From NCBI GenBank assembly GCA_030649735.1, contig JAUSFL010000018.1, positions 1-51,622 of the forward strand: 51,622 nucleotides of DNA, given 5' to 3'. The position numbers and the translations under genes were made by a program. Of this stretch, positions 990-35,096 are shown piece after piece. The number at the start of each line of letters is the position of its first letter. Positions within the stretch are counted from its first letter, which is position 1. This DNA comes from Candidatus Iainarchaeum sp. (GTDB taxonomy: Archaea; Iainarchaeota; Iainarchaeia; Iainarchaeales; UBA10191). Below the pieces are notes generated by a model. That model was not told the DNA's origin. It worked only from the letters and a program-made list of their open reading frames with translations, and searched no databases.

Positions 990-1946
990 ATGCGAGAGCA
1001 AATAATCACTGCAGACCTGCACACTCACTTGCTTGAAAAAAAGACAAAGCCTGCAAAATACTGGGAATTTGCGCAAAAAGCCTGCTTGAACGCGATTGCA
1101 ATCACCGAGCATTCGGAATACAATCCAAAAAAAGCCTACTTGGATGTTCTGGCAAAAAAGCCCGAAGACTTGCTTTTGATTCCTGGCATGGAAATGTCCA
1201 CAAGCCACGGCCATATTGTGGCATTGGGGGAAAGCGAGGAAATCTACGATTTTCCAGAACTCCAGCAAAAAGGAGTGAAGCTCGAGAAAGCATACAAAAT
1301 AGCAAACGAGAATGATATTTTATTGAGCTTTGCGCATCCTTGGGGCTTTGATTATGACAGCGTGGTTTACTTGCAGGGCCTGAGCCAGTTAAGGCATTAC
1401 GCAATTCACGGCAACATGGGCGCAGAGGCATACAATGGAATGATTGGAGAGCTGGCAGAGTCTTTGGTCAAGTCAAATTGGGTGAGAAAACCAATGGGAT
1501 TTTTCGCTTACCTGGAAAAAAACAAGCTTTTGAAGACTGCCGGCATTTCAAGAATAATGGCTCCCTTGAACAAAAAGCTCAACAAGCAGGCATTGGATAT
1601 TGTGCAAAGAAACCTGAACGCAATGTCTTTTGGAGAAGAGGCAAAGTTTATCACTGCTGGAAGCGACGCGCATTCTGCAGACAGGATTGGCTGCGGAATA
1701 ATCAAAGTTAAAGTGATTGCTGAAAAAATTGACAATCGCGCATTCCTGCATGCATTAAGGGACAAAAGCAATGTGCTTTGGGCGGGGCCGCCGGCTTTTG
1801 AGATTGGCGACGGGGTCTTTGCGAAAAGAAAGCAAGGCGTGAAAAGAATGGAAGTTTTGGCCGGCCTGAAGTATGCCGCAAAGAAAGTGATCCTTAGAAG
1901 AAGGCCAAAGCGCATTGAGCAAAAAAGCACAAAAGACAAGGTTTAA
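990..1946 (+). CDS. PHP-family metal-dependent phosphoesterase
   Basis: DLHTH, AITEH, GME...GH, AHP, EAYNG and GSDAH motifs; about 70-aa insertion before GSDAH. Confidence 0.85.
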   Translation: MREQIITADLHTHLLEKKTKPAKYWEFAQKACLNAIAITEHSEYNPKKAYLDVLAKKPEDLLLIPGMEMSTSHGHIVALGESEEIYDFPELQQKGVKLEKAYKIANENDILLSFAHPWGFDYDSVVYLQGLSQLRHYAIHGNMGAEAYNGMIGELAESLVKSNWVRKPMGFFAYLEKNKLLKTAGISRIMAPLNKKLNKQALDIVQRNLNAMSFGEEAKFITAGSDAHSADRIGCGIIKVKVIAEKIDNRAFLHALRDKSNVLWAGPPAFEIGDGVFAKRKQGVKRMEVLAGLKYAAKKVILRRRPKRIEQKSTKDKV

Positions 1947-1948
1947 AA
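1942..1948 (+). promoter_or_regulatory. Probable TATA box for a leaderless padR-isc transcript
   Basis: TTTAAAA about 24 nt upstream of ATG 1972, overlapping the stop of the PHP gene. Confidence 0.5.
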
Positions 1949-1971
1949 ACACTAGCCTGTTTCTATACTAT

Positions 1972-2316
1972 ATGTCGAAATCCGACAGGTTGAATTTAAG
2001 CATATTGGAGACCCGCGTCCTGTGGGCAATCTCCAGGCAGCCATTGCACGGCTATGCCCTCTTGAAGCACTTGAATTCCGGAAGGAAACGGGAAATAACC
2101 AACGGGACATTGTACCCGATTCTTCAAAAGCTCCTGAAGGAAAAAACCATCAAAATAAAGAAGACAGGCAATAGGGAAAAGAAAGTTTACGAGATTTCAA
2201 AATCCGGAAAAGCCATCTTGAAGGACGCATGCAATGAGATTTGCGCCACTTTCCAAAGCATTTTCAACGATTTTGTATGCAAGACTTGCGGGTCAAGATT
2301 GAAGGGAAAAGGGTGA
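1972..2316 (+). CDS. PadR-family transcriptional regulator with Cys-rich C-terminus (start moved from 1915 to ATG 1972)
   Basis: LHGYALLK...GTLYPILQKL...KKVYEISKSGK PadR winged-HTH signature; C-terminal CNEIC...CKTC. Confidence 0.85.
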   Translation: MSKSDRLNLSILETRVLWAISRQPLHGYALLKHLNSGRKREITNGTLYPILQKLLKEKTIKIKKTGNREKKVYEISKSGKAILKDACNEICATFQSIFNDFVCKTCGSRLKGKG

Positions 2317-2320
2317 ATTT

Positions 2321-2536
2321 TTGGGGGACAGCAAGAAGCGCTCGGTCTGCAAAACAGTCTCTTGGAGGCTTATTGCGACAGTAATAACATCAGTGGTTTC
2401 TTTTGCCATCACTGGAAATCTGGTGATTGCAATATCCATTGGAAGCATTGACACTTTGGTGAAATTGTTTGCGTATTATTTTCATGAAAGGGGCTGGGAA
2501 AAAATTGGCTTTGGAAGGCATAAAACAAGCGAGTGA
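2321..2536 (+). CDS. DUF2061-family small membrane protein
   Basis: RSVCKTVSWRLIAT...YYFHERGW signature; TTG start after GGTGA. Confidence 0.85.
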   Translation: MGDSKKRSVCKTVSWRLIATVITSVVSFAITGNLVIAISIGSIDTLVKLFAYYFHERGWEKIGFGRHKTSE

Positions 2537-2543
2537 TCATTGA

Positions 2544-3719
2544 ATGAAGGAAATTTACTTGGATTTTGCGGCAACTACTTTCACAAGGCCTGAAGTGCTG
2601 AAGGCAATGAATCCTTTCTTCACAAGGGATTTTGGAAACCCAAGCAGTTTGCACAATGCCGGCCTTAAGGCAAAAAAGGCATTGGCTGACTCTAGGCAGA
2701 AAGTTGCGGGAATTATTGGTGCAAGGCCGGAAGAAGTCATTTTCACCGGGTCTGGAACTGAAAGCATTAACTTGGCGATCAAGGGAGTAGCGCGCGCCTT
2801 GAAAAAGCAGGGAAAAGGAAACCACATTATCACAAGCAAGATAGAGCATCACGCTGTTTTGGATTCTTGCAGATTCCTGCAGGAAAATGAAGGGTTTGAA
2901 ATCACTTATTTGAGCGTTGACAAGTACGGAACAGTTGATTTGGAAGAGCTTTCTGAAAGAATCACTTCGAAGACAATCTTGATTTCAATAATGTACGCAA
3001 ACAATGAGATTGGAACAATCCAGCCAATCCATGACATTGCAAAAATCGCGAGGGAAAGCAATGTTTTATTCCACACTGACGCGTGCCAGGCAGGGTTTGA
3101 ACTGGACGTTAATGTGCAAAACCTGGGCGTTGACTTGATGACCTTGAATGGCAGCAAAATTTACGGGCCTAAAGGCACTGGAATGCTTTTCGTGAAGAAA
3201 GGAACTCCAATACAGGCAATAATCCAAGGCGGGGGGCAAGAGCGCGGATTGCGTTCTGGAACAGAGAATGTTCCAGGAATTGTCGGGTTTGCAAAGGCTT
3301 TGGAAATTTGCCAAAAGCAAAAAAGCAAGGAAGCAAAAAGGCAGGAAAAATTAAGGGACTATTTCATCAAGAAATTGAAGAAAATTCCTGGAGTGGTCTT
3401 GAATGGCCATCCTACAGAGCGCTTGCCGAATAACGTGAATGTTTCAATAATGGGAATTGAAGGGGAAGCAATGCTGTTAAGACTTAATGAACTTGGGGTT
3501 TGCGCTTCTTCAGGCAGCGCGTGCACTTCAACAAGCCTTGACCCAAGCCACGTGATTTTGGCTACTGGCGTTTCTTTCGAGCAAGCGCATGGAAGCCTGA
3601 GGTTTAGCTTGGGACTGACTACAACAAAGAAAGACTTGGATTTCATTATGCAAAAGCTTCCAAAAATCGTGAAAGACTTGAGGCAGTTAAGCCCGGTGGA
3701 TTTTGAAAAATTAAAGTAA
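2544..3719 (+). CDS. iscS: Cysteine desulfurase IscS/NifS
   Basis: YLDFAATT, GNPSS, EHHAV, NNEIG, HTDACQ, PLP-Lys motif LNGSKIYGPKG, catalytic SSGSACTS. Confidence 0.95.
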   Translation: MKEIYLDFAATTFTRPEVLKAMNPFFTRDFGNPSSLHNAGLKAKKALADSRQKVAGIIGARPEEVIFTGSGTESINLAIKGVARALKKQGKGNHIITSKIEHHAVLDSCRFLQENEGFEITYLSVDKYGTVDLEELSERITSKTILISIMYANNEIGTIQPIHDIAKIARESNVLFHTDACQAGFELDVNVQNLGVDLMTLNGSKIYGPKGTGMLFVKKGTPIQAIIQGGGQERGLRSGTENVPGIVGFAKALEICQKQKSKEAKRQEKLRDYFIKKLKKIPGVVLNGHPTERLPNNVNVSIMGIEGEAMLLRLNELGVCASSGSACTSTSLDPSHVILATGVSFEQAHGSLRFSLGLTTTKKDLDFIMQKLPKIVKDLRQLSPVDFEKLK

Positions 3720-3736
3720 AAAAATGGTGGTTTTTA

Positions 3737-5551
3737 ATGGTTGGAAAAAAGAAAAAAACAGCAGGAGCCGACGTTGCAAGCAAGACTGGAGAGCAGGAAT
3801 GGTTTTACAGCAAAATAGTCAAAAAGCATTTTTTCAACCCGAAAAACTTTTTGAAAAGCACGCAGGAATTGCAGAAGCTAAAGCCCAATGGTTATGGAAT
3901 TGTCGGCAGTCCGGCATGTTTGGTTTCAGGCTCTAAAATTCACACCAATCCAGATTTTAAGAACATTGAAAGCTTGGAGAAAGGCACGAAAGTATTAAGT
4001 CATGATGGAAAATATAACGAAATCATTCAAACATTTGAGAGAGATTATTCTGGAGATTTAATAACAATCCAAAACCAATTCGGGACAGTAAGCTTGACTC
4101 CAGAACATTTAGTATATGCAATGAAAAAGCCAGCAGGACACAAGTTTAATTATGCTGAAGGTAAGAAGAAGCTTTATCCTGCATGGTATTGTGCAGAACA
4201 ATTGGAAAGGAAAGACATTTTCCTTTACCCAATTCCAAAAGAGGTAAAGAATATTGGATTTCTGGAAATTTCTCAAGAGAAAGCAAAATGGGATTTCAAA
4301 AGCAAACAAGTGCCTGAGAAAGTCAAAATTACTCCGGAATTGCTTGAATTATTCGGGATTTACATTGCTGAAGGACATTCTAGAAGAAGTGAAATTGGCT
4401 TTACTTTGTCAATAAAAGAAGGCGCAATTGCTGAAATGATAAACAAGAACGCTAAAAGCATTTTTGGAATAAGCGCAAAAATCAAGGAAAGAAAAGAGCA
4501 AAATAGGCTAGACATAACAGTTGGAAATGTCTTTTTATCAAAATTTTTTGCCAAATTATTTGGAAAAGGAGCAGAAAATAAGCAAGTTCCAAACGAATTA
4601 ATACTTTTAGAGCCCGAACTGCAGAAAAGCCTAATTAAAGGAGTTTGGCAAGGGGACGGCTGCATTAACTTGAAAAGAAAGCACCCAAGAGCAGGATACT
4701 CTACAATTTCATACAAGCTTGCTCACCAGTTGAAATTGCTGCTTTTAAGGCAAAAAATTGGCTGTTCAATTTATACTGAGTTGGAAAAAACAAGAAAAGG
4801 AGTAAATCACAAGAAAAGCTACAGGCTACATGTTGGGGATCTTGAAAGCGTTGGAAAATTGGCAAAAATTTTGGGAATTGATTTTGACAGAAAAAGCATA
4901 AAACGCAGAACAGCAATTTTTGCTTGGTTTGACAACAATTATTATTACGCGGCCATCAAAAAAGTCACAAAAAGCCAGTTTAATGGGAAAGTTTACAATG
5001 CTGAAATAGCAAACGCCCATTCATACATTACTGAAAATCTGACCGCGCATAATTGCGGCGACAAGATGGACTTGTGGATTAAAGTGGACCCCAAGACCGA
5101 AAGAATCAAGGAATGCAAGTGGAAGACTTTTGGCTGCGCTTCAGCAATTGCAAGCACTTCAATGCTTTCAACAATGGTGTCAGAGAAGGGCGGAATGAAA
5201 ATTGAAAAGGCATTAAAAATCACTCCGCAAGACATCATGAAGCGCTTGGGCGGCTTGCCTGCAAGGAAAGTGCATTGTTCAGTGCTGGGCGACAAGGCGC
5301 TTCGCGCTGCAATAAATGACTATTACAGGAACACAAAGCAGTTTGACAAGGTTGTGGATGATGGAAAAAAGGTCATTGACAAAGTTTTGGGCACTACAGA
5401 CAATGACATCGAACACGCTGTTTTGGAAGGCGCAAAGACTTTTGAAGAAGTCCAGCAAAAAACCAAGGTCGGAGTGCACGACAAGGAATGCATTCCGCAA
5501 GTGATGGAATTGATTCATTACTACCGCAAGAAGCATTTCAACGAGGACTGA
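3737..5551 (+). CDS. iscU: Fe-S scaffold IscU/NifU-N with an intein and a C-terminal degenerate BFD-like domain
   Basis: YS..VKKHFFNPKN...GSPA|CGD...FGCASAIAS...RKVHCSVLG after intein removal; directly follows iscS. Confidence 0.92.
   Translation: MVGKKKKTAGADVASKTGEQEWFYSKIVKKHFFNPKNFLKSTQELQKLKPNGYGIVGSPACLVSGSKIHTNPDFKNIESLEKGTKVLSHDGKYNEIIQTFERDYSGDLITIQNQFGTVSLTPEHLVYAMKKPAGHKFNYAEGKKKLYPAWYCAEQLERKDIFLYPIPKEVKNIGFLEISQEKAKWDFKSKQVPEKVKITPELLELFGIYIAEGHSRRSEIGFTLSIKEGAIAEMINKNAKSIFGISAKIKERKEQNRLDITVGNVFLSKFFAKLFGKGAENKQVPNELILLEPELQKSLIKGVWQGDGCINLKRKHPRAGYSTISYKLAHQLKLLLLRQKIGCSIYTELEKTRKGVNHKKSYRLHVGDLESVGKLAKILGIDFDRKSIKRRTAIFAWFDNNYYYAAIKKVTKSQFNGKVYNAEIANAHSYITENLTAHNCGDKMDLWIKVDPKTERIKECKWKTFGCASAIASTSMLSTMVSEKGGMKIEKALKITPQDIMKRLGGLPARKVHCSVLGDKALRAAINDYYRNTKQFDKVVDDGKKVIDKVLGTTDNDIEHAVLEGAKTFEEVQQKTKVGVHDKECIPQVMELIHYYRKKHFNED
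3917..5053 (+). mobile_element. Intein (379 aa) with LAGLIDADG homing endonuclease in IscU
   Basis: Starts CLVSGSKIHT; block B LTPEH; LAGLIDADG-like LFGIYIAEG and LIKGVWQGDG; ends VYNAEI...TAHN followed by the +1 Cys. Confidence 0.93.
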
Positions 5552-5557
5552 TGTTTC

Positions 5558-5965
5558 TTGAAATACTGCATTAGCTCAAGCAAGGAAAACATTTCAAAGC
5601 TTCCGAAAGGCATTGAGGAAGTCTTGCTTGCAAGGCCTTTAAGGCTTTCAAAGCTCAAAGAGCTGGTTTTGGAAAAAGGCGTTCGGAAAATTTACTGCAG
5701 CAAAAGCTGCATTTCCCGCACTCCGTTGAAATCCCGAAAGTTTTTGGAAGAGCAAGGCGTTATTTTCGAAATGGAAAGCTTTCGCGGAAAGCCATTAAGC
5801 ACCAGCATGGAAAAAATCCTTGAATTCAACGAACTGCGCAAGGACGGCTTAAGCTACAGGAAAATCGCCGAAAAACTCGGAATCTCCAAAAGCACAGCGC
5901 ATTACCTGAACCATTACTCGCAGAGAAAAAAATTAAAGAACAAAGGCAGGATTTTAAGCGCTTGA
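5558..5965 (+). CDS. DUF1699-like protein with C-terminal HTH
   Basis: ISSSKENI..L....EEVLLA.RP N-terminus; GLSYRKIAEKLGISKSTAHY helix-turn-helix. Confidence 0.65.
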   Translation: MKYCISSSKENISKLPKGIEEVLLARPLRLSKLKELVLEKGVRKIYCSKSCISRTPLKSRKFLEEQGVIFEMESFRGKPLSTSMEKILEFNELRKDGLSYRKIAEKLGISKSTAHYLNHYSQRKKLKNKGRILSA

Positions 5966-6036
5966 AACGCTTAACAAGGAGCCAAAAACTTTATTAATAG
6001 AAAAAATACTATTTAGTCAACAAAGCAGGTAATTCT

Positions 6037-6261
6037 ATGGATGTGTCTGAAAAATTAAGATTGATGCTCTTGGCAGAAGAGCAAACCCTCAGGAAAAAGC
6101 AGCCAAAGGCTTGGACTGCAATAAAGTACAGGAAGAACGTGAAGCTTCCCAAAGACTTGCTGAGAAAATTAAAGAAGCAAATGAAAGGCAAGCCAATAAA
6201 CCAGAATAAAATCAAGCTGAAACGGAGAAAGTTCACTAACAGGAAGAAAAAACTGGTTTAA
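6037..6261 (+). CDS. Small, very basic hypothetical protein
   Basis: 74-aa K/R-rich ORF filling the gap, with a TATA-like TTTATTAA upstream; no recognisable motif. Confidence 0.5.
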   Translation: MDVSEKLRLMLLAEEQTLRKKQPKAWTAIKYRKNVKLPKDLLRKLKKQMKGKPINQNKIKLKRRKFTNRKKKLV

Positions 6262-6278
6262 CCTGTTTTTTCCTTTTT

Positions 6279-7301
6279 TTAATCTTTTAATTCCTTGATT
6301 TTTTCCCTAAATCCTTTAGAGCCAAGGAAGTCTTCAATCAAAATCATGCTTTCCTGGAATAATTCGTCAATTTTTGCAATTCCGGAAAAGCCTGCGGCTC
6401 CTTCATGGCCGCCGCTAGTTCCTTCAAACTTTCTCTCAAGCTTTGAAAGAATGTCTTTTTCCAAGTCAATTCCAGTCTTTTTCAAAAAAGACTCTGAAGC
6501 CCTGGCGTTAAGCTTTGCGTTTCCATTATTATCAGAAAACCCGACAATTACCAGGTCAGCGCCTAAAGAAATCAGGCTGTTTGCTGCATTGCTTGCAAAA
6601 TGGCTCACTTGGCTTAAGGCAATCAAGAAATCCCCTGCCTTGAAAAGCATTACTCTCTTTGCAGACTTTAAGGAGGCAATTCTTTCAGAAACATCCTGCG
6701 GGACTTCATAAACTGCCTGAACTTCAGAGACTGTTTTTCCGCAAATTTTCAAGAGGCTTGCGAGAGTCTGTAATGTTTTAGAGTCGGCAATTGCCAAATC
6801 ATTCGAGTCAGTAATTATTCCAGCGCTCAAGAGCACTGCATTGCCTGCTGAAACTTTGATTTTCAATTCTTGCAGGATTTGGAACACAATTTGCGTTGTT
6901 GAAACAGCGTTTGGGTCAATGATTGACTTGTTTGGAAAATCCAATGAATCCTTGGTTTTAGAATGATGGTCTATTATGAAGATTGGCTTCTTGAATTTTT
7001 CAAGCTCTAAAGCCTGCAATCCAAGCATTTCTGGAGTGTTAAAGTCTAGAACAATGACTGCGGCAAAGTCAGAAATTACTGGGTTTAAAGCGTGCTTTAT
7101 TTTCATGCTTTCCGAAAGCCTTAAGGCATGCTGGTTCAAGTAGCCTGGAACTCCAATAGTGAATTGCACATCATTCAATGAATTCTTCAAAACCGCTGCA
7201 GAAGCAATGCAGTCAACGTCTGCTGCCTTGTGCACCAAAAGCAAAACATGCTTTCCGCTCAATCCCTTGAGGAATTTTTGGAAAGTTAAAGTTAAAGGCA
7301 T
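6279..7301 (-). CDS. DHH/DHHA1-family phosphoesterase
   Basis: HKAADVD, LDF, IIDHH, GIITDS and GGH motifs. Confidence 0.9.
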   Translation of the reverse strand: MPLTLTFQKFLKGLSGKHVLLLVHKAADVDCIASAAVLKNSLNDVQFTIGVPGYLNQHALRLSESMKIKHALNPVISDFAAVIVLDFNTPEMLGLQALELEKFKKPIFIIDHHSKTKDSLDFPNKSIIDPNAVSTTQIVFQILQELKIKVSAGNAVLLSAGIITDSNDLAIADSKTLQTLASLLKICGKTVSEVQAVYEVPQDVSERIASLKSAKRVMLFKAGDFLIALSQVSHFASNAANSLISLGADLVIVGFSDNNGNAKLNARASESFLKKTGIDLEKDILSKLERKFEGTSGGHEGAAGFSGIAKIDELFQESMILIEDFLGSKGFREKIKELKD

Positions 7302-30311: not shown

Positions 30312-33300
30312 TTGGTTGAAGAATTACGGGAAGTGCAGGCAGAAAGCTCTGAAAACCCTTTTGTTGAAAAGTTCGAGGAATTCTTCAAAGTACAGTCAAT
30401 CAAAAAGCAGGTTGAACGGCTGATTGGAAGCTATCCTGAAAAAAAAAGCCTCACAATTGATTTTAAAGAATTGGAACAATTTGACTACCAGCTCGCAGAC
30501 GAGCTTTTGGCAAACCCGGATAACGTGCTGCAAGGCGCGCAAATCGCAATCCAAAAAGTAGAAGTTCCGGCATTAGAAATTGATGCTTTTTCCCCGCACG
30601 TGCGCTTTTTCAACCTCCCAAAAGACAGCACAGTGCTCATTAGGGATGTCAGCGCAAAGCATTTGGGAAAACTAATGGCCATTGAAGGGGTTGTCCGCCA
30701 ATTCAATCAAGTGCAGCCAAAACTGAAAATGGCAATTTGGAAATGCCGAAGGTGCGGAAACTCCTACAAAATGGAACAGGACGGTTTTTCCATAAAAATG
30801 CCCGCAATGTGCGAATGCAAGCACAGGGACTTCGAGCTTAACGAGCCTGAAAGCACTTTCATAAACCACCAAAAAATCGGGGTCCAAGAGCCATTGGAAA
30901 AATTGAAGGGAAGCGAACAGGCAAACACTCTCGATGTTCACGCGCTTGATGACTTGGTAAACAAAGTGACTCCAGGAGACAAGACAATAATTGTTGGAAT
31001 TTTGCGCCTGTACCCGCCGCAAAAAGACAAGCACTTGATTTACGGAAGATACCTGGAAGCACTAAGCATTCAGGAAAAAGAAAGAGAATTCGAAGAAATG
31101 GAAGTTTCAAAGGAAGAAGAGGAAGAAATAAAAAAATTCTCGAAAAAAAGAAACGCTTTTGAAGTATTAAGGCAAAGCATTGCCCCAAGCATTTACGGCC
31201 ACGACACTGTAAAAGACGCAATAGTCCTGCAGCTTTTCAACGGAGTGAAAAAAACCCTTCCCGGAGAGATGAAAGTCAGGGGAAACATTCACGTTTTATT
31301 GGTTGGAGATCCTGGCTGTTTAGTGGGCGATGAAAGAGTCGCCTTAGGAAATGGATCCATTGAAAGAATTATGGACTTGGGAAAAGAGCACCTTCAGGAA
31401 TTGCAAACGCAAGTCTTGACAGGCGAAGGCGGAAAGAAAAGAGACTGGGCAACCTGCTTTCACTATTACAAGCAGCAGCCAGTTATTGAAATAATCACTG
31501 AAAGCGGAAAAAGCATCAAAGGAACACTAAACCATCCGCTTCTTTGCGTTTCAAAAGAAAACAGCAGCGTGAAAAGAGCGTGGAAAAGGCTTGACGAATT
31601 CAAAATAGGCGACAAGGTCGCTTCAGTCACAAAAATCCCTTGCACTATCACTGCAGAAATCCCAACTGGCTTTAAGACAGTTCTCCAAGAAAATAATTCA
31701 AAAGCCAAAGGAAAGCTTCCTGAAAAAGTTTCAAAAAAGCTTGCTGGCTTTCTAGGGTATTGCATTGGTGATGGGTGGGCGCAAAAATACAGGATTGGAT
31801 TTGTCGTCTCTGAAGAAGAAATCGACCTATTGCCAAAACTGCTCGAGGCAAGCGAAGAATTGTTTGGAATAAAGCCAAGCTTGGAGAAAAAGAAACTCAA
31901 GAACGGGCGCAAAGTCCAAATGCATTATGCAATAATCCATTCCAAAAACATTGCAAAAAACCTTTCATTCCTGCAGGAAAAAAGAATCCCAAAATTAATA
32001 ATGCGCTCCGGAAACAAAGTGGCTGCAGAATTCATTAAATGGCTTTTTGAGGCTGACGGCTGCGTTTTCAGCAAAGGCCGAGGCAAAAGAGCAATAGCGC
32101 TAAAGGCAAAAAACATCGAGCTTTTGCGCGATGTGCAAATGCTCTTGCTCAGGTTTGGAATCCACTCCAGAATCACGGAAAATGCACTGCAAATAAGGCG
32201 CGGCAAGGACATTATAAAATTCTCAAAAAGCATTGGCTTCGCTTCAGAAAAAAAGAAATCTCGAATGAAGCAATTGGCAAAAGACGCTGAAAGCTTTGGA
32301 AGATTCAATTCTCAAAGAAGCGAAAGAATCGTGAAAATAATCAAGCACTCTCCAGAAGACGTTTTTGACATTGAAGTCCCAAAAACCCACAGGTTCATAG
32401 CAAATGGAATAATATCCCACAACACTGCAAAGTCTCAAATGCTCCGCGCAATAGGGCAAATAGCGCCAAAAAGCATTTACGCCGCAGGAAAAACCACAAG
32501 CGGTGTGGGCCTTTGCGTTGCGCCAGACACCTTAATACTAAATGACAACGGATTTAAGGAAATCAAGGAATTCGTTGAAGACTCGTTTGATGAGAAAAAA
32601 GCAATTGAGGAAATTCAAGGGGCTTTCAGCAACCAGTTCAATTCAAAAAACGCAAACTGCTTAAGCCCAAGCTTGAAAATGGAAGAAAAGCCAATTTACA
32701 AGATTTGGAGAATTAAAGCGCCTGAAAAAATGTTCAAAATCAAGACAAGAAGCGGAAAAGAAATCAAGCTCACACCAAACACCAGCCTGCCGAGAATTAA
32801 AGATGGGAAAGTTGAATGGATAAAAAGCAGCTTGCTTGAGGCTGGAGACTTTGTTGCAACTGCAAGAAAGCTCCCTCAAGGAAAGCAAAAGGTTTACTGC
32901 GCTGAAATATTAAGCAGTCACCAAACCATCAGAATCCAAAACAACGTGTCAAAAGAATTCAGTGAAATCACTAATAAATTAATTAAGAAAAAGAATTGCA
33001 CGCTTGAAGAACTTGCCAAAAGCATTGGCTTGAAAAAAGAACGATTTTATCGCTGGAGAATGCAAAAATTCTATCAAGGAATCCCATTGAGTGTTTTCTG
33101 GAAGCTTGGAATTGAAGCAGGAATTCCAAAAAATCAACTGGCTGGCAAGATAAAAACAGTGTTTTCAAGATATGGAAAAAACATTAATATTCCAGAAAGA
33201 CTTGACAATGAAAAACTTTGCTATCTTGCAGGATTGGCCTTGGGAGACGGAAGCCTTTATGAAGGAAAAAACACCGCCCAATTAAGGATTTGGAGCGCTG

Positions 33301-35096
33301 ACAGGCAAATCCTGGAAACAATTGAAGAGTATGTTGAGGAATTATTTGCGATTAAGGCAGAAAAGATAAAAGACCATAATGGCCTTGAAGGAAGGCGAAT
33401 AAAATACTTTGAAGCAATAGAGCTCTTGAAAGAGCTTGGGTTGGCAAAAAAAGAAAAAATTGCATTAAGCCATTCAACCACAGAGCAATCAAATAAAAGC
33501 ATCAAAGAAATTCTTTCAGGCCTGTTTGACACTGATGGATATGCAAGCAATGCAAGAGCTGGATCATCACACGTTGGGTTTACAACAATCAGCAAAAAGC
33601 TCGCCCAAACAACAAGCCTTGCGCTCTTAAAATTTGGAATCCTGTCAAAAATCAGGTTGAGAAAAAGGGCAGGAAACAAGGCATTCTCAAAAGGACTGTT
33701 GATTCAAAGCAAGCACGACCAATACTGTGTTGAAATTAGGGGCAAAAATAACCTTGAATTGTTTGAGCAAGAAATAGGATTCAAGCTTGAAAGGAAAAAG
33801 AAAGCCCTTGAAATAATAATTGGAAAAATTTCAAAAGAAAACACAAACATTGACACAATTCCAGAAATTAAGAAACTAACGGGCTTTTCATTCAATCCTT
33901 CAAGAAAATTCCTTAAAGCAAATGTTGAGAATGATAAATTGCTAAATCTTTCAGAATCTGACGTTTTTTGGGATGAAATTAAGGAAAAAACAGAATTTTC
34001 TCCAGACTTTGAGTTTGTTTACGATTTTAGTGTTAGAGAAAACCATAATTTCATAGCAAATGGATTCTTCGTGCATAATACTGCTTCGGCAGAGAAAGAC
34101 GAGTTCGGGGAAGGCGGTTGGACTTTAAAGGCCGGAGCATTGGTTTTGGCTTCTGGTGGAATGGCAATGATTGATGAATTTGACAAAATGAACCCTGAAG
34201 ACCGCTCTTCAATGCATGAAGCATTAGAGCAAGGAACCATAAGCATTGCAAAGGCGGGAATTGTGACAACATTCCGCACTGACACCAGCGTTCTTGCGGC
34301 AGCAAACCCAAAATACGCAAGGTTTGACGCTTACATGAATTCTTTAGAGCAAGTCGACCTTCCGCCAACATTGATCAGCCGCTTTGACTTATTGTTTTTG
34401 ATAAAGGACAATTTGGACAGGAAAAAAGACGAAGACATTACAGACTTCATCCTGAAAAGGCACCAGGAAGGCGAAAAGGCAATTCATGAAAAAAAATTCC
34501 AGGTAAAAATGGATGAAGTGAAAACAGAATCAGTAAATGAGGAAAGCGTTGACCCGGAATTCCTGAAAAAATACATTAGTTACGCAAGGCAGAAAATATT
34601 CCCAATAATGACTGACGCCGCAATGAACCACATCAGGGAATTTTACCTGAAGTTAAGGGACATGGGAAGGCAGGACAAGGTTTATGCCGCAACGCACAGG
34701 CAATTGGAAGCCCTAATCCGCCTGTCTGAAGCAAGCGCGCGTGTGCGCCTGAAAGATTTTGTCGAGGAAGAAGACACTGAAAGGGCAACGCGCATTTTCA
34801 GGGCATCTCTTGACGAGCTTGCAATTGACAAGGAAACTGGAAAATTGGACATTGACTTGATTACTTCAGGCCAGGCTTCAAGCAAGACTTCGCAAATCAA
34901 GAAAATTGTCGGAATCATCAGGGAAAAAACACAGGATGGAAGAAGCCAGGCAGCCTATGATGAAGTGGTAAAAATTGCGGTGTCTGAAGGAATTGACGAA
35001 GACCGCGCCAAAGAACTCATTAGCGACTTGAAAAAGAAAGGCGAGCTTTACGAGCCAACGCTCGGCTGGCTTAAAATGACAGACAGGAAAGACTGA
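30312..35096 (+). CDS. mcm: MCM replicative helicase with two inteins (703 aa after splicing)
   Basis: CRRC..CEC Zn finger, GDPG|TAKS Walker A, IDEFDKM Walker B, AANP, SRFD, winged-helix C-terminus. Confidence 0.97.
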   Translation: MVEELREVQAESSENPFVEKFEEFFKVQSIKKQVERLIGSYPEKKSLTIDFKELEQFDYQLADELLANPDNVLQGAQIAIQKVEVPALEIDAFSPHVRFFNLPKDSTVLIRDVSAKHLGKLMAIEGVVRQFNQVQPKLKMAIWKCRRCGNSYKMEQDGFSIKMPAMCECKHRDFELNEPESTFINHQKIGVQEPLEKLKGSEQANTLDVHALDDLVNKVTPGDKTIIVGILRLYPPQKDKHLIYGRYLEALSIQEKEREFEEMEVSKEEEEEIKKFSKKRNAFEVLRQSIAPSIYGHDTVKDAIVLQLFNGVKKTLPGEMKVRGNIHVLLVGDPGCLVGDERVALGNGSIERIMDLGKEHLQELQTQVLTGEGGKKRDWATCFHYYKQQPVIEIITESGKSIKGTLNHPLLCVSKENSSVKRAWKRLDEFKIGDKVASVTKIPCTITAEIPTGFKTVLQENNSKAKGKLPEKVSKKLAGFLGYCIGDGWAQKYRIGFVVSEEEIDLLPKLLEASEELFGIKPSLEKKKLKNGRKVQMHYAIIHSKNIAKNLSFLQEKRIPKLIMRSGNKVAAEFIKWLFEADGCVFSKGRGKRAIALKAKNIELLRDVQMLLLRFGIHSRITENALQIRRGKDIIKFSKSIGFASEKKKSRMKQLAKDAESFGRFNSQRSERIVKIIKHSPEDVFDIEVPKTHRFIANGIISHNTAKSQMLRAIGQIAPKSIYAAGKTTSGVGLCVAPDTLILNDNGFKEIKEFVEDSFDEKKAIEEIQGAFSNQFNSKNANCLSPSLKMEEKPIYKIWRIKAPEKMFKIKTRSGKEIKLTPNTSLPRIKDGKVEWIKSSLLEAGDFVATARKLPQGKQKVYCAEILSSHQTIRIQNNVSKEFSEITNKLIKKKNCTLEELAKSIGLKKERFYRWRMQKFYQGIPLSVFWKLGIEAGIPKNQLAGKIKTVFSRYGKNINIPERLDNEKLCYLAGLALGDGSLYEGKNTAQLRIWSADRQILETIEEYVEELFAIKAEKIKDHNGLEGRRIKYFEAIELLKELGLAKKEKIALSHSTTEQSNKSIKEILSGLFDTDGYASNARAGSSHVGFTTISKKLAQTTSLALLKFGILSKIRLRKRAGNKAFSKGLLIQSKHDQYCVEIRGKNNLELFEQEIGFKLERKKKALEIIIGKISKENTNIDTIPEIKKLTGFSFNPSRKFLKANVENDKLLNLSESDVFWDEIKEKTEFSPDFEFVYDFSVRENHNFIANGFFVHNTASAEKDEFGEGGWTLKAGALVLASGGMAMIDEFDKMNPEDRSSMHEALEQGTISIAKAGIVTTFRTDTSVLAAANPKYARFDAYMNSLEQVDLPPTLISRFDLLFLIKDNLDRKKDEDITDFILKRHQEGEKAIHEKKFQVKMDEVKTESVNEESVDPEFLKKYISYARQKIFPIMTDAAMNHIREFYLKLRDMGRQDKVYAATHRQLEALIRLSEASARVRLKDFVEEEDTERATRIFRASLDELAIDKETGKLDIDLITSGQASSKTSQIKKIVGIIREKTQDGRSQAAYDEVVKIAVSEGIDEDRAKELISDLKKKGELYEPTLGWLKMTDRKD
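31317..32423 (+). mobile_element. MCM intein 1 (369 aa, LAGLIDADG) in Walker A
   Basis: CLVGDERV...GTLNHP...LGYCIGDG...LFEADG...VFDIEV..THRFIANGIISHN|T. Confidence 0.95.
32514..34079 (+). mobile_element. MCM intein 2 (522 aa, LAGLIDADG plus HTH insert)
   Basis: CVAPDTLI...LTPNT...LAGLALGDG...LSGLFDTDG...VYDFSV..NHNFIANGFFVHN|T. Confidence 0.95.
35072..35096 (+). repeat. Degenerate direct repeat, copy 1 (mcm 3' end)
   Basis: TAAAATGACAGACAGGAAAGACTGA, 20/25 identical to 35935-35959. Confidence 0.7.

Follow-up and report, generated by a model that had tools for sequence, protein, structure and literature searches.

The 51,622-nucleotide contig analyzed here (Candidatus Iainarchaeum sp., JAUSFL010000018.1; hereafter the window) raises the question of why the gene for an iron-sulfur (Fe-S) cluster assembly scaffold, iscU, should be interrupted by an intein directly before the codon of its first cluster-ligating cysteine, and whether the element is a genetic parasite or a switch that controls maturation of the scaffold. 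Inteins are known mainly from replication and repair proteins, as the initial annotation of the locus had stated and as the main text of a 2015 survey describes (Novikova et al. 2015, PMC4760082). We consider it likely that the insert is a selfish, mobile class-1 intein that carries a LAGLIDADG homing endonuclease and has settled in iscU, in the small genome of an archaeon. This reading draws on features that were computed directly, namely the anatomy of the insert, its intact motifs, its fold match, the intein-free allele of a congener, its patchy distribution and the existence of a related intein family.

The iscU gene contains an apparently complete class-1 intein

The precursor of an IscU/NifU-type scaffold is encoded by a single open frame on the forward strand (3737..5551), which the list of open reading frames (ORFs) gives as 604 residues plus a stop codon and which runs in frame through the intein. 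Read directly, it begins with a lysine-rich N-terminus that is followed by an IscU-type segment up to the sequence GIVGSPA, which ends at residue 60. The GSPA motif (residues 57-60) is followed by Cys61 (nt 3917-3919), the first residue of an insert that opens with CLVSG, spans 379 residues (1137 nt, 3917-5053) and closes with TAHN at residue 439 (nt 5051-5053); the next codon specifies Cys440 (nt 5054-5056), the cysteine of a CGD sequence. The insert separates an N-extein (residues 1-60, 3737..3916, forward strand), which has no cysteine and whose lysine-rich start and WFYS...HFF block are kept in relatives, from a C-extein (residues 440-604 plus stop, 5054..5551, forward strand), in which an IscU core is followed by a BFD-like tail and which phmmer matches to 4eb5_C, 9wfy_D, 2z7e and others. 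The initial annotation had placed a 379-residue LAGLIDADG intein between GSPA and CGD, and its coordinates proved exact on direct reading.

All of the residues expected of a class-1 intein are present (C61/C440, T121/H124, N421/E423/H428 and H438-N439), and their conservation can be followed in an alignment of 23 IscU proteins that carry the same type of insert (alignment A1). On the forward strand, block A supplies the N-terminal splicing nucleophile, Cys1 (C61, 3917..3919), which is invariant in 23 of 23 sequences, as is the Cys+1 residue (C440). Block B contains a T-x-x-H sequence (T121-P-E-H124, 4097..4108) in which the histidine is invariant and the threonine is kept in at least 90% of the sequences; the role of this block in class-1 splicing is reviewed in PMC10663303. 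Block F (V419-Y-N421-A-E423...H428-S-Y430, 4991..5026) has invariant N421, E423 and H428 residues, and block G ends in the penultimate His438 and terminal Asn439 (5048..5053), both of which are invariant. The endonuclease portion of the insert contains two LAGLIDADG motifs on the same strand: the first (L203...A211-E212-G213, 4343..4375) provides the acidic residue E212 and has invariant G207, E212 and G213 positions, while the second (L299...W304-Q-G306-D307-G308, 4631..4660) provides the acidic residue D307, with W304 and G308 invariant and G306 and D307 conserved in at least 90% of the sequences. Both motifs retain the acidic ends that characterize LAGLIDADG homing endonucleases. Besides Cys1, the window intein contains cysteines only at intein positions 92, 249 and 283, and no cysteine other than Cys1 is conserved within the intein among the 23 sequences of A1. 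Judged by these motifs, the insert is a complete class-1 intein with an apparently intact LAGLIDADG homing endonuclease.

Profile and structure searches are consistent with this assignment. The Pfam LAGLIDADG_3 family (PF14528) matches residues 296-380 with 49.7 bits (cut-off 22.5), and several NCBIfam 'intein-containing' exception models are matched through the endonuclease part, the best intein-bearing models being those for Tes, PolII, DnaB, GyrA, RpoA'', VMA and RecA. Structure prediction with AlphaFold2 on the basis of A1 gave a model with a mean predicted local distance difference test score (pLDDT) of 83.5. When it was compared to the PDB using Foldseek, the top match was the TliVMA intein (7qsu; E 1.2e-21, template modelling (TM) score 0.76 on the target), followed by PI-SceI, PhoVMA, PI-PkoII and PI-PfuI; the endonuclease part is matched by I-DmoI, I-Tsp061I and PI-SceI, in line with the alpha-beta-beta-alpha-beta-beta-alpha core of two-motif LAGLIDADG enzymes, and the extein part matches IscU structures (4eb5_C with a root-mean-square deviation of 1.8 Å at 49% identity, as well as 2z7e). 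As in TliVMA and PhoVMA (7qsu, 7qss, 7qst), PI-SceI (1vde, 1ef0), PI-PfuI (1dq3) and PI-PkoII (2cw7), a HINT domain is combined with a two-motif LAGLIDADG domain. Foldseek relates the window intein to these solved endonuclease inteins at E-values of 1e-21 to 1e-13 with a probability of 1.00 but an identity of only 12-18%, and by sequence only the PI-PkoII (2cw7) and VMA (7qsu) inteins are detectable, with phmmer E-values of about 4e-5. The hosts of the solved inteins (V-ATPase subunit A, ribonucleotide reductase and DNA polymerase) differ from IscU.

The +1 nucleophile is a presumed cluster ligand of the scaffold

The host protein is identified by a Pfam NifU_N match (PF01592) at residues 431-534 with 117 bits (cut-off 22) and a Fer2_BFD match at residues 552-593 with 33.3 bits (cut-off 26). 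Three NCBIfam NifU/IscU equivalogs score below their cut-offs (TIGR02000, 126.5 vs 273.3; TIGR03419, 104.4 vs 187.9; TIGR01999, 91.9 vs 192.4), because the intein splits the domain and the N-terminal part drops out of the match. When the C-extein is aligned to solved structures with phmmer, the alignment begins at its residue 1, the +1 cysteine, which pairs with Cys33 of Archaeoglobus fulgidus IscU (4eb5_C; E 2.3e-23, C-extein residues 1-111) and Cys36 of 9wfy_D, a 157-residue IscU chain; by the ranges of the match table, it corresponds to residue 36 of Aquifex aeolicus IscU (2z7e) and residue 37 of 2l4x. We take Cys33 of 4eb5_C and its equivalents in other IscU chains to be ligands of the [2Fe-2S] cluster, and the earlier statement that the +1 nucleophile is the first cluster-ligating cysteine of the scaffold agrees with this pairing. 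The remaining ligand residues lie within the C-extein (5054..5551, forward strand), where C440 (nt 5054-5056) is joined by D442, C467 (nt 5135-5137) and H513-C514 (nt 5273-5278); these residues and G441 are all invariant in A1. The exteins share their fold and ligand residues with the IscU proteins of the A. fulgidus IscS-IscU complex (4eb5) and of A. aeolicus (2z7e), both of which, in contrast to the window protein, lack an intein and a BFD-like tail. That tail (residues 552-593, 5390..5515, forward strand) resembles [2Fe-2S]-type domains but probably does not bind a cluster, because it has a single cysteine, C585, and even this position is occupied by valine, alanine or isoleucine in several family members.

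No second NifU_N gene was found in the source genome (G000; 1.28 Mb, 51 contigs, 92.7% complete, 2.3% estimated contamination), in which the precursor is the only match, and the same genome yielded no SUFBD_core (SufBD) gene. By gene content, IscS-IscU thus appears to be its only Fe-S assembly system, and the precursor would have to splice if the cell makes its own Fe-S clusters.

We propose the following course of events. The iscU gene would be translated as a 604-residue precursor that is incapable of building clusters, because 379 residues part the first ligand cysteine from the N-terminal part of the scaffold. Maturation would proceed by the four standard class-1 steps as summarised in PMC10663303: an N-S acyl shift at Cys61, trans-thioesterification in which Cys440, the future cluster ligand, receives the N-extein, cyclisation of Asn439 that frees the intein, and an S-N shift that yields an ordinary 225-residue IscU with a continuous GSPA-CGD sequence. 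Residues of blocks B and F would assist Cys61, Cys440 and Asn439 in these reactions, which in an anaerobe-like cell are expected to be essentially constitutive. The freed intein would then act as a site-specific DNA endonuclease that cuts intein-free iscU at the conserved ligand-cysteine codons, and the cut allele would be repaired from the intein-bearing copy (homing). This scheme would account for the location of the element at a ligand cysteine, because the near invariance of the DNA there favours homing, and because the residue is the obligatory +1 nucleophile.

Intein-free alleles and signs of mobility

An intein-free allele is found in a genome of the same genus (G001), which has an uninterrupted iscU gene of 240 codons with iscS upstream and the same helix-turn-helix (HTH) gene downstream. 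The joined exteins of the window protein align with this IscU end to end, with 73% identity (164 of 224 aligned residues) and no gap at the junction, and the DNA around the junction is identical at 43 of 60 nt. None of the eight BFD-type orthologs that come closest in the genome sample, with 68-80% identity in the C-extein, has an intein either. The intein is also poorer in GC (35.3%) than its exteins (42.2% and 45.8%) and the window (42.3%).

The distribution among genomes is patchy. The same intein occurs in iscU in 6 of 60 relatives, and the same type of intein is present in 13 of the 215 genomes of a phylum sample, a count that includes the source genome and a copy truncated where its contig stops; NifU_N genes are present in 190 of these 215 genomes, mostly in open frames of 122-270 residues. 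Occupancy also varies within genera, where two of six (g34), two of ten (g54) and one of two genomes (g36) carry the element. In a further genome, an IscU C-extein-like match lies inside a 589-residue open frame (G043:C73:2770-3048) that may represent another intein type or a fusion.

Histories of the intein and its host were compared using an intein tree of those 47 proteins among P0001-P0240 that have a pattern-located intein of at least 360 residues before the first ligand cysteine, with others left out; the exteins were compared by pairwise identities in place of a tree, as they offer only 142 columns. The tree requires four changes of IscU subtype (with or without the BFD tail), at least three of which are forced by well-supported branches, and intein identity exceeds extein identity in 60 of the 1081 pairs (e.g. 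59% vs 50% for P0058 and P0093). This incongruence fits occasional transfer of the intein between diverged iscU alleles. Patchy occurrence, an intein-free congener, low GC and some intein/extein incongruence are all compatible with a mobile element. A recent horizontal arrival of the window copy itself was considered and rejected, as no relative is closer to it in the intein than in the exteins; its nearest relative is P0002, with identities of 65.7% for the intein and 74.6% for the exteins.

Several observations weigh against a selfish, mobile element or limit what can be claimed for it. The scores for the splicing domain are under the curated Pfam cut-offs (Intein_splicing, 26.1 bits vs 35.8; Hint_2, 22.4 bits vs 28.4), a weakness that is compensated by the fold search, which matches 7qsu at the E-value given above. 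The intein tree mostly tracks the two IscU subtypes, and the relationship of the window copy to P0002 fits vertical co-descent of intein and host. The same site is occupied in P0008, P0044 and P0054 by mini-inteins that have lost their endonuclease, indicating that an intein can be kept there without mobility; such persistence is neutral in itself, yet it would allow for a host function. Finally, a selfish origin does not exclude that splicing is sensitive to redox state or metals.

The source genome contains many elements with related endonucleases; LAGLIDADG_3 matches it 16 times, and two of the inteins involved lie in the MCM gene of the window. Matches are located on contigs C3, C9, C24, C30, C39, C44, C46, C49 and C50. 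Several fall in large frames (851, 885, 1138 and 1496 residues) that are probably further intein hosts, and frames of about 230-340 residues may encode free-standing endonucleases. The MCM replicative helicase gene (30312-35096, forward strand; 1594 residues) has two Intein_splicing and two LAGLIDADG_3 stretches by Pfam, corresponding to its two inteins; LAGLIDADG is matched weakly a third time, at 33213-33374.

IscU proteins are invaded at two ligand-cysteine sites

To place inteins in IscU relatives, a protein collection was searched with the C-extein and only proteins of 332-1057 residues were considered; these length limits favour interrupted forms, and the resulting counts do not measure prevalence. 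The set comprises 91 proteins including the query, in each of which three extein segments were located. Inteins are present in 86 of the 91, at two sites that each lie directly before a ligand cysteine: 54 proteins have an intein at the site occupied in the window (site a, before the first ligand cysteine), 31 have one before the second ligand cysteine (site b, between TFG and C-A/G-S), and one protein of 756 residues (P0054) has inteins at both, a 159-residue mini-intein at site a and a 361-residue intein at site b. Four proteins have no intein, and one is an unclear fragment. Three of the four intein-free proteins (P0060, P0066 and P0070) are IscU domains fused to ferredoxin-reductase-type FAD/NAD-binding domains (PF00970, PF00175, PF08030). 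The initial annotation did not regard IscU as a common intein host and called for a search of intein databases and genomes with mapping of the insertion site; these counts show that IscU is often occupied. Nevertheless, full-text searches turned up no publication on inteins in IscU or NifU, although supplementary tables of intein surveys (e.g. PMC4760082) could list some; in the main text of that 2015 census, neither IscU nor NifU nor Fe-S is mentioned.

The inteins at these sites are of several kinds. At site a, 39 are of the LAGLIDADG type found in the window (360-383 residues), eight have 320-340 residues, two are mini-inteins of 159-161 residues, and five are in records cut at the N-terminus. 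The group of eight consists of P0063, whose 340-residue intein has a His-Asn end and a LAGLIDADG_3 match, and seven inteins of 320-321 residues that start with C-x-x-G-[DE]-T and end in Lys-Asn or Arg-Asn, five of them with a Pfam HNH_3 match. These seven (P0013, P0014, P0019, P0023, P0036, P0045 and P0062) share their Lys-Asn or Arg-Asn ends with the mini-inteins of P0044 and P0054, all without the usual penultimate histidine. Site b (P0009-P0091) is occupied by at least three kinds of intein, whose first residue is serine in 23, cysteine in seven, tyrosine in one and alanine in one of 32 cases; those that begin with alanine or tyrosine could be class-3-like inteins, inactive copies or errors. 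The source names among the matches include Woesearchaeota, Pacearchaeota and Nanoarchaeota archaea, as well as Yanofskybacteria and Taylorbacteria, bacteria of the candidate phyla radiation (CPR). From these protein sequences, DPANN archaea and CPR bacteria appear to be groups in which IscU frequently hosts inteins and has been invaded several times. When 1.84 billion representatives were searched exhaustively with phmmer, 10,376 matches reached E <= 0.001, and full-length IscU-intein proteins rank highest among them; lower in the same list are inteins that are 24-37% identical and reside in many other, larger proteins.

A nearly invariant target sequence combined with a required +1 nucleophile would lead unrelated inteins to converge on the two ligand sites, and the presence of several unrelated inteins there is what one would expect if parasites exploit conserved sites.

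Conditional splicing and other explanations

The main alternative is that the intein is retained because it gates scaffold maturation, such that IscU is made only in reduced, metal-balanced cells. Splicing would be blocked by a disulfide between Cys61 and Cys440, by binding of zinc, copper or iron to C440, C467, H513 and C514, or by a persulfide that IscS places on C440, which would prevent trans-thioesterification. The chemistry is plausible, as Cys1 and Cys+1 are both cysteines in all members of A1 and the +1 residue is, by alignment to IscU structures, a metal and cluster ligand; moreover, a block of splicing would affect the entire Fe-S pathway, IscS-IscU being the only assembly system found, and endonuclease-less mini-inteins are kept at the site.

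There is also precedent for such control. The initial annotation had cited the mycobacterial SufB intein as sensitive to oxidation and metals, and a review that covers it bears this out: oxidants induce a Cys1-Cys+1 disulfide in the SufB intein, and zinc and copper inhibit several inteins via Cys1 or a C-terminal site (PMC8529194). The SufB (Pps1) intein of Mycobacterium tuberculosis resembles the IscU intein in that its host is essential for Fe-S assembly, in that both splice-junction nucleophiles are cysteines, and in that splicing precedes complex formation (PMC8529194). It differs in residing in SufB, a protein of the SUF system, in an actinobacterium, and in having a measured redox sensitivity; in addition, the NCBIfam matches indicate no close sequence relation between the two. 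In the MoaA intein of Pyrococcus abyssi, which as described in PMC10663303 likewise belongs to an archaeal, oxygen-sensitive host protein, the precursor is locked by a disulfide that links Cys1 to a cysteine of the N-extein and persists until the environment becomes reducing. The trap cysteine in MoaA is located in the N-extein, whereas the window N-extein contains none, so that a MoaA-type trap is impossible and only links between Cys1 and Cys+1 or other ligand cysteines could form.

These parallels are outweighed by the evolutionary evidence, and we regard conditional splicing as an unlikely reason for retention of the intein. A switch that serves its host is difficult to reconcile with the sporadic distribution (13 of 215 genomes), the absence of the intein in a genome of the same genus and in the eight close BFD-type orthologs, an apparently intact homing endonuclease, and an intein more AT-rich than its host gene. 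There is no conserved extra cysteine in the intein and none at all in the N-extein on which accessory redox control could act. The several unrelated inteins at the ligand sites, with 23 of 32 site-b inteins starting with serine, point to site conservation rather than thiol chemistry as their common cause, and sensitivity to oxidants or zinc in vitro, being common to cysteine-dependent inteins, would not prove a function. Hence the redox, metal and persulfide switch proposed at the outset keeps its plausible Cys1/Cys+1 chemistry but finds no support as an evolved device, given the patchy occurrence, intact endonuclease, AT-rich composition and lack of accessory cysteines.

A broader form of the idea, for which we also see only a slim chance, is that the two ligand cysteines are the sites of a recurrent maturation checkpoint in DPANN archaea and CPR bacteria that have only IscS-IscU. 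In this form, which we rate just as doubtful, the +1 thiol would be both persulfide receiver and metal binder, and oxidation, binding of zinc, copper or iron to the incomplete ligand set, or persulfidation by IscS would stall the precursor at the second step of splicing until the thiol pool is reduced.

Still less probable, and in our judgement very unlikely, is that the insert is dead or decaying, such that the precursor does not splice, the gene is a pseudogene and clusters come from other means or from a host organism. DPANN-type genomes are reduced, and the cells are often host-dependent, which lends this explanation some favour, as does the finding that two genomes of the same family as the source genome (G002 and G003; 91% and 85% complete) have no NifU_N match. 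Opposed to it are the 604-codon frame, which remains open across an insert of 35% GC, the integrity of all splicing blocks and all IscU ligand residues, the intact iscS gene next door, and an architecture that recurs in dozens of protein clusters as well as in 12 further genomes of the phylum sample. That a chimeric contig joined a foreign intein into iscU by an error of assembly or binning can practically be dismissed, since the junctions are codon-exact on both sides, the same insertion occurs at the same codon in independent assemblies, and the 51.6-kb contig has coherent archaeal genes, even though the draft is in 51 contigs with 2.3% estimated contamination.

Genomic context of the interrupted gene

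The interrupted gene belongs to a tight same-strand run of five genes in the order PadR, DUF2061, iscS, iscU and HTH, all on the forward strand. The run opens with a gene for a PadR-family transcription regulator (1915..2316; Pfam PadR, 51.4 bits), which is followed by a predicted 71-residue DUF2061 membrane protein (2321..2536; PF09834, 76.6 bits) and an IscS/NifS-type cysteine desulfurase of 391 residues, the sulfur donor for the scaffold (2544..3719; Aminotran_5, 285.9 bits). The desulfurase passes the cut-off of the IscS subfamily model NF002806 (328 bits, cut-off 304) and scores slightly below that of the NifS model TIGR03402 (517.9 vs 530.75 bits); its gene ends 17 nt upstream of iscU, and the earlier claim of an adjacent IscS holds. 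Directly downstream of iscU is a gene for a 135-residue helix-turn-helix protein (5558..5965; Pfam HTH_23/HTH_24), beyond which the opposite strand encodes a DHH/DHHA1 protein, a prefoldin subunit, ribosomal protein L37ae and an RNase PH-type exosome subunit. Farther along the window is the MCM helicase with its archaeal winged helix. The ribosomal L37ae, exosome subunit, prefoldin and MCM genes identify the source organism, as far as gene content can, as an archaeon.

A scan of positions 1800-6300 yielded 10 promoter-like and 6 terminator-like signals, close to the 6.3 and 5.8 in shuffled sequences, using bacterial models on an archaeal host. A minor signal at 3901-3916 (forward strand), a small G+C-rich hairpin with a T-rich stretch behind it, ends exactly at the N-terminal splice junction; it is probably due to chance, the overall count of the scan equalling that of the shuffles.

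Significance

IscU is a new host protein for a well-known type of element, which does not amount to a new kind of system; there is little unusual about the element itself, and it is the breadth of IscU invasion that is noteworthy. For annotation, the finding means that 'iron-sulfur cluster assembly scaffold proteins' of 500-600 residues of the intein-bearing kind should be recognised as precursors. The IscU intein also offers a clean test case in the debate over selfish and regulatory inteins, because its +1 nucleophile is a redox-active metal ligand, its host is the single entry point for Fe-S clusters, and intein-free alleles are present in close relatives. If the maturation checkpoint were true, it would place an intein switch at the entry point of Fe-S biogenesis.

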